DNA of 64,000 nucleotides from Vicinamibacteria bacterium (GCA_963555995.3 OY821641.1:3392001-3456000), one strand, 5' to 3'. Numbered from the stretch's first letter, positions 3,001 to 35,094 are shown. The notes: generated by a model from the letters alone, not told the origin. A program made the numbers and translations.

Positions 3001-6000
3001 GAGCAGCCGCCGGCAATGGGTGAGCGTCTCGCCGAGGTCCCGCGTCGCGTGCAGCACGTTCGCCGCGACCACCAGGTCCCACCCGTGACGCTCAAATCCC
3101 TGCTCCGGCGGGTCCCGCTCGATGTCGAGCGTCCGGAAACGCAACGTCTCCTGCCGCCCGAAGCGCCGGTCCGCGGGACCGAAGAAGCCCGCCGAGATGT
3201 CCGTGAAGGTGTAGTCCGTCCGCCCTTCCGGCGCCGCCGCCAGCACCGCCGCCGTGGTGGCGCCGGTCCCCGCCCCGACTTCCAGCACCCGCAGCCGGCG
3301 CTCTCCGGGCAACCCCCGCACCGCCGCGGCCACCGTGTCCGCCACCCGCCGGTTCACCACCCGGCTCGCCGCGGCGTCGCGGTAGAGCTCGGCCACTCCG
3401 GGCTCGGCGCCGAACAGCAGCGCCAGCGGATCCTGCCGGCCCCGCAGTACTTCGGGAAGCGCCGCGCCGCACCGGTGCAGCAGCACGCGCTCGACGGCAT
3501 CCGGCGGATCCCCGGGCGCTGCCAGACCCTCCGGAAGCGGGTCCTCCGCGCCCGCCGCCACCAGCCAGTCGCCTTCGGGAGCACGCGCCAGCACCCCCGC
3601 CGCCTCGAGCAATCCCAGCAGTCGAGCGAAGAGCCGCCGGTGGTCCGCCGTAACCTTCAGGCGCTCGCGCAGCCGGTCGCCGTCGAAACGATCTCCTGTC
3701 GTCCGTTCCCAGCCGAGTTCCGTCAGTCCGGAGAACGCGAACCACCGCGCTTCACGCTCCAGTTTCCGGTCGAGTTCCCCGAGCGCTTCCCCCTGGATTC
3801 CCTCCTCCGCCAGGTACTCCTCCGCGGGCGGGGATCCGGCCGCCAGCTTCTCCGGCCCCGCGAGGAAATCGGCTGCCAGGAGCCCGACCGGCGGCGCCGC
3901 CCGCCACTCGACCTGGTAGTGGAGCCTCTCCTCCAGCGCGCCGAGCAGCACCTCCCGGCTCGCCCGTTTCGCCGTGAATCCGGACACCCCGCCGATCGCC
4001 TCGCCGGCGACGGTGTAGAGGTCCAGATCGCCCTTGCGGACCTCTCCGGATTCCTGCCGAAGCCGCGCCCGACACACCACCCGCTCCGGTAGCGGGCCAA
4101 GGAGCCACAGCCGTTCCCATCCGAACGGCAGCCAGACCCCGTCGGCGTCGTCCGGTCCCCAGGTCACCGAGAGCACCTGGAAGCAGCCGTCCAGCAGGAG
4201 CGGATGCGCCCGCGCCCCGTCCGCTCCGGCGGGCGCCCGCACCTCGCCCACCGCCTCCCCGGAACCCGCCCACAACGCGGTCAGCACCCGGAACGGCTCG
4301 CCGAGGACGAGCCCCCGCGCCGCCATGCCCCGGTAGAGCGCCGCCGGCTCCATCGGCTCGAGCCCGTCCCGCAGCCTCTCGGGGGCGACGTCCGCTCCCG
4401 GATCCGGAGCGGCGCCCGTGCGACCCTCGGCGTGGAGCTCCCAGCCGCCCCTTCCGTCTGCCCGGCTCGCCACCTCGAAACGCTCCCCCGGGCCGAGCAC
4501 CGCCTGCACCGTGCGCCCTCCCTCCCGGGGCAGGACCAGCGCCCGATGAAGCTGGAAATCCTCCAAAGCCACCGCCGGGCCGTGCCCCGTCTCCCAGAGC
4601 CCCTCGAGCGCCTGCGACGCGTAGAGCGCCCCCGGCGCCACCACCTCGCGCAACAGCATGTGGTCCGCGAGCCAGGCGGGAGCGTTCGCGCGCACCTCCG
4701 TCTCGAAGGACACGCCTCCGTCCCGTGCGTCGCGCCGCGCGCCCAGCAACGGGTGGCGGGGGGACGGCCGGGGGCGCTCGGCCGCCTCGACCCAGTACCG
4801 CTCGCGCTGGAACGGATAGGTGGGCAGCGAGACCCGGCGCCGGCGTTCCCCGGCGAAGAGCCCCGCGAACGAAATCTCCAGCCCGGCCTCGTAGGCGCGC
4901 GCCACGGCCGTGACGAAGTCCCCGCCTTCCCCCGGCGGGAGCGTGGGGAGCACCACCGGCGGTTCTCCGGCGGGCCACGCCTGGGATGCCAGCGGACCGA
5001 GCACCGGGCGCGGGCCGATCTCGACCACCACTCCCACTCCGAGTTCCGAGAGGGTGCGCAGCGCGGCGGCGAACCGGACCGGCTCCCGCGCCTGCCGCCG
5101 CCAGTAGCGGCCCTCCGGGACGCCGTCCAGGACGCGGCCGCGGACGCCGCTCACCAGCGCGAGCGACGGCGCCGCGAACCCTTCCGCCGCGACCTCCAGC
5201 GCCGGAAGCGCCGGATCCACCAGGGCGCTGTGGAAGGCGTGGCTCGTGGGCAGCCGCTCGACCCGCACGCCCGAGGTCCGGAACCCATCCGTCACCGCCG
5301 CGACCTCTTCCTCCGGTCCGCTGATCACGGCGTGCGCGCCGTTGTCCGCCGCCAACGACACTTCGCCGGGAAGGACGGAAACCACGTCCTCCGCCGGGGC
5401 GAACACCGCCGCCATCGCGCCCTCGGCGGGAAGGGACCCCAGGAGTTCGCCCCGGCGCGCCGCAAACCGCAGGCCCTCGACCAGACCGAACACCCCCGCC
5501 GCTCCCGCCGCCGCGATCTCCCCGGCGCCGTGCCCGAACACCGCTTCCGGGCGGACCCCGACACCGGCCCAGAGCGCCGTCAGCCCGCTCTCCAGCGCGT
5601 AGAGCGCCGGCTGGGTCCATTCCAACCGCCCCGAGGCCTCCTCCTCGCCGAACAGGAGTCCCAGCAGCGACCCCTCCCGCTCCTCCCCGAACGCCGCTTC
5701 ACAGCGGTCCAGAACCTTCCGGAACACCGGCTCGCTCTCATACAACTCCCGGCCCGGCCCCGACCACCCGGCCAGCTCTCCCGAATACAGAAACGCAACC
5801 GTCCCAGCGGACGACCCCTGACCCGCTCCCGCCTCGCCCGCCGGCACGAGGCGTAGCCCCGCTCGCAACGACTCCTCGTCGCGGAACACGACCCCGGCGC
5901 GGCACCCGAAGTGGCTCCGGCCCACCCCCGCCGTCCACGCCGCGTCCGCCAGCGGCGCGTCCTCGTCCAACCACGCTCCGTAGCGGCCGGCCAGCTCCCG

Positions 6001-35094: not shown

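Follow-up and report, generated by a model that had tools for sequence, protein, structure and literature searches.

A giant polyketide synthase (PKS) of the Sup/SA1 type, encoded by a Vicinamibacteria bacterium, a sponge-type acidobacterium, carries no canonical Ser-His acyltransferase (AT) in any of its 17 extension modules (0/17), and the reading that we favor, at a probability of about one half, is that the housekeeping malonyl transferase FabD, a free-standing enzyme, would load malonyl in trans onto this assembly line of cis-AT descent. The locus was analyzed from a 64,000-nucleotide stretch, here called the window, that corresponds to C1:3392001-3456000 of the source genome (G000; GCA_963555995.3, OY821641.1). 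PKS gene 1 lies on the minus strand at positions 1..35235 and continues to C1:3379623, ~12.4 kb beyond the window start, so that the window truncates the gene; counted from its first GTG it encodes 15,870 amino acids, and an ATG at 35094 may instead be its true start. It specifies a loading module and modules M1-M8, of which M7 begins at window positions 1..105 (minus strand) with the rest of the module outside. The start of PKS gene 2 (C1:3320783-3379642, outside the window; 19,619 amino acids) overlaps the end of gene 1, and its product contributes M9-M17 and a terminal KS0-AT0, after which no thioesterase is found. The two genes together span 35,489 open codons without a stop. The module order, ketosynthase (KS)-AT-(reductive domains)-acyl carrier protein (ACP), is that of cis-AT lines, and a methyltransferase (MT) motif is present in 10 of the 17 modules, an in-module C-MT with dehydratase (DH), enoylreductase (ER) and ketoreductase (KR) being a Sup/SA1-type trait.

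State of the AT domains

In the motif alignment of the whole line, the catalytic Ser is replaced by Gly in 16 of the 17 extension ATs, and the GQGxQ motif is changed too. Fourteen of these 16 ATs also lack the GAMAAV..HAFHS segment, which is the ferredoxin-like subdomain, with M1 and M6 remaining full length. All six ATs within the window are on the minus strand. M1 AT0 (30181..31206) is full length, with GEGSP, GHGVG (30928-30942) and a retained HAFH, as is M6 AT0 (4810..5799; module KS-AT0-DH-MT-ER-KR-ACP), with GELAG, GHGAG (5521-5535) and HAFH. M2 AT0 (25846..26649), in a KS-AT0-ACP module, carries GQGSG (26371-26385) and has lost the ferredoxin-like subdomain, and this small subdomain is likewise gone from M3 AT0 (23092..23856; GAGAG, 23578-23592; module KS-AT0-DH-MT-ER-KR-ACP) and M5 AT0 (10981..11733; GHGAG, 11455-11469; module KS-AT0-DH-ER-KR-ACP). 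M4 AT0 (16009..16773; GAGAG, 16495-16509; module KS-AT0-DH-KR-ACP) is identical to that of M3, the identity being part of a 2.7-kb duplication (15630-18356 and its copy at +7083). In the loading module (32835..34917, minus strand), which consists of a KS with a Cys to Ser change (DTASSS) and an ACP, the whole AT is deleted, and the KS-AT and post-AT linkers are joined at 33190..33435, where relatives carry an AT. An initial annotation of the window had listed the four AT motif variants of M1-M6, the degraded GQGxQ, the full-length M1 and M6, the shortened M2-M5 and the joined linkers of the loading module; all of these are exact, within a single open minus-strand frame, with GQGxQ altered in 6/6 ATs. 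The same annotation had arranged them as a graded series of decay. The grades exist, but they neither follow module order nor represent one lineage of decay.

The remaining extension AT, that of M7, lies 1.6-2.6 kb beyond the window start (C1 ~3389424-3390443). It retains GQGSQ, GHSAG and the Arg, and its catalytic His is changed to Gln (HAFQ; codon CAG at C1:3389850-3389852), at a position that aligns with the catalytic His of FabD. The annotated view that all ATs appear dead stands for M1-M6, qualified by M7, which keeps its Ser and has lost its His; the downstream active AT that had been envisaged exists as a Ser-bearing domain, but a crippled one. The M7 AT departs from live ATs at 2 of 94 conserved columns, and HAFQ is unique to it, since His is present in 900 of the 915 Ser-bearing full-length ATs collected; we read the other 14 exceptions as actinomycete-type rows with one-residue misalignments of YASH. 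According to the available text of bioRxiv 10.1101/2020.05.15.098798, the ferredoxin-like subdomain of Escherichia coli FabD comprises residues 126-202, is critical for ACP binding and holds His201, which is half of the catalytic dyad. The shifted Ser of the M2 GQGSG motif, raised earlier as a residue through which that AT might still load its ACP, has no His partner and is thus unable to take this role, the subdomain that bears the His being gone from M2. Judged by sequence, then, the extension modules would be without a functional AT (16 Ser to Gly changes and one His to Gln), as in trans-AT systems.

The AT fold after the KS is missing only in the loading module, and the other modules keep the hydrolase core, which is not the trans-AT arrangement. 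A structural model of the M3 linker and AT0, predicted from a 72-row alignment, has a pLDDT of 90.9 and TM scores of 0.85-0.88 to the DEBS and Lsd14 KS-AT structures, and M3 AT0 is predicted to be an intact alpha/beta-hydrolase core; because the alignment contains mostly live ATs, the model shows fold compatibility rather than stability. A single-sequence fold of KS3-AT0 reaches a pLDDT of 34. Since Pfam still scores the AT remnants (PF00698 search), domain annotation labels the giant line as cis-AT.

Contigs from four public sequencing runs (three samples, one study), which possibly include the source data of the assembly, match the M1-M4 AT regions and the loading module deletion with 0 gaps, and across 20 kb no indel is seen in the four runs. 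The M3/M4 duplication is real, because the identical stretch is covered at approximately double depth. The M7 CAG codon is covered by contigs of all three samples with 0 differences and no variant. An assembly artefact is therefore rejected for M1-M4, the loading module and the M7 AT. The module count of gene 2 is provisional, because the read check covered regions of gene 1 and a k-mer listing identifies near-identical repeats of 4.3-4.8 kb in gene 2.

Selection on the line and ancestry of AT loss

The other domains do not share this decay. The KS Cys/His/His residues are present throughout M1-M17, with the terminal KS alone having lost one His; the DH His/Asp motifs are present; and the ACP Ser is found in every module. 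The KS, DH, MT, ER and ACP motifs are thus intact in an open frame, as had been annotated. Estimates of dN/dS (NG86) were made among M8-M16; because these modules all share one deletion, they diverged after AT death. The AT remnant gives 0.45 (0.33-0.61), compared with 0.35 for KS, 0.52 for DH, 0.43 for MT, 0.40 for ER, 0.39 for KR and 0.62 for ACP, and with 0.35 for the live ATs of G018, a complete related cluster. Neutral simulation of the remnant yields 1.06-1.55 and 0.8-1.7 stops per copy; neutral evolution of the whole gene, raised earlier as part of a possible refutation, does not agree with the values observed. Where ATs of G000 and G018 bear the Ser, its codon is AGC (12/12), which a single transition separates from GGC; the Ser-less ATs, 17 with the terminal one counted beside the 16 internal ones, encode Gly at this position by GGC in eight, GGA in four, GGT in four and GGG in one. 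All four Gly codons are used and the residue never changes, so what is maintained is the Gly as such. Of the 24 minor-strain variants listed for the unique 5' region, mostly on low-depth contigs, 16 are synonymous. By these sequence measures the PKS genes, including the AT remnants, are under purifying selection and the line is not decaying, and the remnants resemble spacers that structural selection maintains. Among the KRs (e.g. those of M3 at ~19,000 and M6 at ~730 of the window), the catalytic Tyr is His (QANHAAAN) in 8/8 scored MT-bearing modules and Tyr in 6/6 MT-less ones; His is also usual among SupA-like proteins (73/75). The KRs of M11 and M15 (GRAND) look dead.

The G018 cluster has the same start and end architecture, and GHS is retained by each of its ATs, 10 in extension modules and one in the loading module. 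ATs on fragments in G007, G012, G015 and G023 are mostly live, and some ATs in G006 and G015 are damaged. The KS affiliation, which the initial annotation had put forward as a check, favors cis-AT ancestry: single-KS scores for M3 are 450 bits to CurL and 428 bits to DEBS, against 344 (4QYR) and 337 (PksJ) for AT-less systems. The highest score, 566 for 7ZMA, adds up two KSs, and the comparison is one of scores rather than of a cis/trans reference tree. On these scores the KSs are of cis type, not of the trans-AT lineage.

AT loss has occurred repeatedly in this family. A survey of 388 modules from 205 proteins, taken at a KS identity to KS7 of 58% or more and enriched by the use of dead-AT queries, contains 274 modules outside G000 scored as internal, of which 247 are live, 20 are Ser-less (all Gly), five are without an AT and two are otherwise damaged. 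Three of the 20 proved terminal, leaving 17 in 11 proteins. The five wholly AT-less elongating modules occur in four proteins (P0013, P0014, P0129 with two, and P0285) and adjoin live ones. In the P0138 cluster, module 2 has Gly in 5/5 members that contain it and module 3 in 1/6, a Ser/Gly polymorphism which indicates that AT loss continues. Within the proteins P0133 and P0132 live ATs are absent. An AT tree of 81 rows, built without terminal, loading, SupA and distant rows and with G018 and M12-M15 thinned, shows seven Ser/Gly changes, and a single origin of Ser to Gly is ruled out (approximately unbiased test, p-AU 1.3e-6). Both trees group the ATs of M3-M6 and M8-M17 with proteins of other assemblies in a clade made up entirely of dead ATs; placement of M1 and M2 is unstable, inside this clade with FastTree and beside M7 with IQ-TREE (support 82). 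Spread of the internal dead ATs from the terminal AT0 is unsupported by the trees, though the terminal rows are long-branched, and the dead extension ATs appear to derive from live ATs within their own lineage.

Line-wide loss on this scale is more than chance, because 331 of 337 internal modules are live in a control set of 89 mostly actinomycete matches. A degenerate dead-motif pattern matches two of 401 class genomes, G000 and G015, and no second line-wide AT loss was found among the 113 loci examined, where ATs are mostly live. Two Nocardia-named matches (P0231 and P0240), unrelated PKSs of actinomycetes, have a second module that lacks an AT and is flanked by live ones. In SupA-like proteins the first AT mostly bears the Ser and the terminal AT lacks it. 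By motif scan, one SupA group with a DAACAS KS (P0055, P0066, P0069-P0071, P0073, P0075 and others) has GRSEG, GRTKG or GQSKG at the first AT, with the His of GHS lost and Ser changed to Thr in some; this may be an odd AT type or a motif mis-pick.

The origin of AT-less assembly lines is debated and natural intermediates are scarce. This family shows all stages: some clusters have live ATs throughout, Ser and Gly alternate between nearly identical proteins, dead ATs occur both at full length and trimmed to a spacer, some elongating modules have no AT at all, and one line has no canonical AT. These stages may represent a stepwise route in Sup/SA1-type lines, from Ser to Gly through loss of the ACP-binding subdomain to loss of the whole AT.

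Candidate malonyl loaders

A six-frame hidden Markov model census with PF00698 identifies five AT-bearing open reading frames (ORFs) in the assembly: PKS genes 1 and 2, a SupA-like PKS, a SwfA-like PKS and FabD. FabD, 2.4 Mb from the cluster, is the only free-standing AT, and by this census no other discrete AT gene is present within the cluster, close to it or elsewhere in the assembly; the accessory AT enzyme offered as one source of extender units in the initial annotation has no such gene. FabD becomes the main loader candidate because the M7 AT is crippled and no accessory AT gene is found. Streptomyces coelicolor FabD/MAT restores an AT-null DEBS module 6 (Kumar et al. 2003, as described in the accessible part of PMC6164871).

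The FabD of G000 is itself unusual. Of the 209 sites that do not vary among 14 genus members, 16 carry a change private to G000, compared with 41 of 8,221 such sites in 36 control ORFs, whose highest individual rate is 2.9%. These changes are concentrated in the ACP-binding subdomain (10/56 versus 6/153 elsewhere; p=0.002). The residue equivalent to Lys189 is Thr in G000 and Arg in 19/19 others, the loop after Asn160/162 is also changed, and the equivalent of Arg287, a position that is not genus-invariant, is Met. AcpP is essentially unchanged and FabF is typical. The changes lie in a ~1-kb patch (C1:933100-934300; fabD and the 5' part of fabG) whose core is 24-31% divergent from genus members, with typical flanks. 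That the sole such patch among 37 genes falls on the gene singled out in advance is suggestive but no proof. In a genus member without an AT-remnant match at E 1e-40, a second free AT resembling FabD, though very divergent, was observed at G004:C2:15057-15878.

If FabD is the loader, it would put malonyl on each ACP, each KS would extend the chain, and the MT, KR, DH and ER domains would process it, with the AT remnants retained as structural spacers between KS and DH. AT loss would be affordable because the line uses malonyl alone, as its HAFH ancestry suggests, and would add methyl branches by in-module MTs, so that a generic malonyl loader suffices; this malonyl-only use may explain why ATs are shed here, unlike in methylmalonyl-using actinomycete lines. 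The product would be a largely reduced ~C36 chain with up to 10 methyl branches, which the terminal KS0 may hand to a free ACP and hydrolase. The original proposal, a cis-AT line that has lost its ATs and receives malonyl in trans, agrees with all the tests carried out, and we infer as much from sequence. More tentatively, the data may represent an independent, ongoing origin of trans-AT logic within a cis-AT family, by repeated stepwise AT loss that is complete here over 17 modules, with FabD and its swapped-in ACP-binding face as loader.

Several observations weigh against FabD as the loader. The dN/dS values reflect past, not present, selection. The genome is 92.95% complete by markers, and a missing AT gene is possible. 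In the FabD patch dS is raised with dN (0.73 versus 0.28 within the clade; dN/dS 0.18 versus 0.16); the raised dS indicates that the allele was probably replaced by recombination and that the signal is not adaptive acceleration, and positive selection on FabD, with dS up as much as dN in a recombination-like patch, is ruled out. Two other FabD clusters (P0390 and P0391) have part of the G000 allele in common, with its NGR and RMN motifs, and keep Arg at 189, and no link was established between these clusters and AT-dead PKS clusters. By eye, there is no obvious shift between the ACPs of the cluster and those of G018. Finally, with few deviating conserved columns and its Gln, Ser and Arg in place, the M7 AT looks as if selected for activity until recently.

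This last point leads to the alternative that M7, as the one embedded AT, serves the whole line within or between complexes, either with enough activity despite its His to Gln change or until lately. M7 is the only AT with the Gln, Ser, Arg and full small subdomain, dead or AT-less modules often adjoin live ones in the family (P0013, P0014, P0129, P0285, the P0138 cluster and P0121), and loading by a neighboring AT is proposed for irumamycin module 12 in the available text of PMC11672594. However, the residue lost aligns with His201, half of the catalytic dyad, in a variant unique among the ATs collected; a single tethered domain must reach 17 ACPs on polypeptides of 15,870 and 19,619 amino acids; and in P0133 and P0132 no live neighbor within the protein is available. 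We consider this unlikely, and the His to Gln change weighs against M7 as a live AT serving all modules. It is rather improbable that the line was served by M7 and died recently with the loss of its His, leaving too little time for decay, even though the change is a single base, the closest relative (P0006) has His, and several dead-AT family proteins, including the 96%-identical P0126, end in frameshift-like tails. Such tails also occur in the live-AT proteins P0008 and P0124 and may be assembly errors, and the read data, with CAG invariant in three samples, an indel-free 20 kb and mostly synonymous minor-strain variants, argue against recent death.

Malonyl might also come from the embedded live AT of another synthase or from self-malonylation of the ACPs, which is known from type II PKS ACPs. 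Both other synthases have canonical ATs. The SupA-like PKS (C1:3252668-3262744), 58 kb from the giant cluster, has a live AT (GHSVG/RAFH; 50% identical to that of M7) and a terminal AT0, in a locus (C1:3252668-3264168) that also holds a hydrolase and a free ACP; the SwfA-like PKS (C1:1353334-1361538) has GHSSG and IAFH, the type of motif given for SwfA in the accessible text of PMC3908369. Some 12 kb upstream of the SwfA-like PKS are a third hydrolase copy and the genome's only match to PF01648 (phosphopantetheinyl transferase). We give little credence to supply from these sources, as the ATs are tethered in their own synthases, the synthases are also present in relatives with live ATs or without a giant cluster, and neither route has positive evidence. 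Very improbable is that dead-AT modules do not elongate and the chain is passed on or stutters: stuttering was the explanation for conglobatin AT3 (GQAVG) in the text available of PMC4504003, and skipping or premature termination is reported for lines with one inactive AT in that of PMC9301873. Such a mechanism absorbs one dead AT, not 16 of 17, and here 17 KSs keep Cys/His/His while the terminal KS has lost a His, and the MT, ER, KR and DH domains of dead-AT modules are under purifying selection. The origin of AT-less lines becomes open to experiment with small soluble proteins (ACPs, FabD and one KS-AT).

Neighboring genes and comparison with known systems

Directly upstream of PKS gene 1, a Sup-type alpha/beta hydrolase (35591..36508, minus strand), with homologues beside related clusters, is likely the release enzyme. 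Upstream of it, a small ORF (36764..37156, minus strand) with a weak ACP match (E 3.9e-4; GLSSL motif) and a real start probably near 37020 is likely the free carrier of Sup-type clusters. The Sup/SA1-type arrangement of a terminal KS0-AT0, no thioesterase and an adjoining free ACP and hydrolase is thus present, though the ACP match is weak; the monomodular layout of SupA proper is not, as the giant line has 17 modules. An AcrB/MMPL-like transporter (window 37313-40510, same strand), directly upstream of the ACP-like and hydrolase genes, is a possible exporter. Further along, window 54140-63139 holds lipid genes encoding a reductase-AMP-ligase-ACP-acyltransferase fusion (1,471 amino acids), an epimerase, a LarA-like protein, a HAD hydrolase and FabH; they are conserved genus-wide and so probably not cluster-specific. 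GC skew of the plus strand is strongly negative (-0.16 to -0.37) across window 1-35235 and ~0 in the remainder, and four-fold sites in M8-M16 are 76% G.

Most close matches are metagenome-assembled genomes of sponge-typical taxa, and one run with a small share carries the label sponge metagenome. The SA1 cluster of an uncultured Discodermia dissoluta symbiont, with SA1_PKSA and SA1_PKSB, was reportedly described by Schirmer et al. in 2005, and SA1_PKSA is said to comprise ~25,500 amino acids. SA1 resembles the line described here as a giant, multimodular, MT-bearing, highly reducing PKS family of sponge symbionts; SA1_PKSB (P0142) shares 48% identity across the AT-DH region of M3 and shows the same KR His/Tyr pattern, but 3/3 of its ATs have canonical GHSVG with His. 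With the Sup (sponge symbiont ubiquitous) PKSs (for Sup and Swf context, see the accessible portions of PMC4245539, PMC9864124, PMC3908369 and PMC4552006) the line shares the KS-AT-DH-MT-ER-KR-ACP module, the terminal KS0-AT0, the lack of a thioesterase and the adjoining free ACP and hydrolase; methyl-branched fatty acids are the Sup product proposed in the available part of PMC4245539. SupA, for which a check on this pattern had been called for, is monomodular with a dead AT only at its C-terminus, whereas the giant line has 16 Ser-less elongating modules. No description of line-wide AT loss in a Sup/SA1-type family was found in the full-text literature searched, most subscription journals being outside its scope.

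Trans-AT PKSs (PksJ/PksL, disorazole, bryostatin) are alike in having modules that cannot self-load, malonyl-only extension and in-module C-MTs, and the loading module of the giant line and the five AT-less elongating modules of the family have nothing but joined linkers. The giant line differs in its cis-type KSs, the AT hydrolase core kept in most modules and the lack of a discrete AT gene besides FabD. It thus stands outside the trans-AT family and, to go by its sequence, must work like a trans-AT system if it is functional; if FabD-loaded, it would be a natural halfway stage between cis-AT and trans-AT assembly lines. Conglobatin, bengamide, desertomycin, gephyronic acid, irumamycin and TgPKS2 lines each have a Ser-less AT in an otherwise intact module; as far as the accessible sources describe them (PMC9301873, PMC4504003 and PMC11672594), these are single inactive ATs, called rare in type I PKSs in PMC9301873, with one or few ATs affected, unlike a line without a canonical AT in 17 modules. 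For PKS engineering, a cis scaffold loaded by FabD, in which the AT is a stable minimal spacer, would be of use. DEBS module 6 in AT-null form, complemented with S. coelicolor FabD/MAT, represents the same mechanism as proposed here, but engineered and in a single module; in the giant line, if the proposal is true, it would be natural and act over the whole line.

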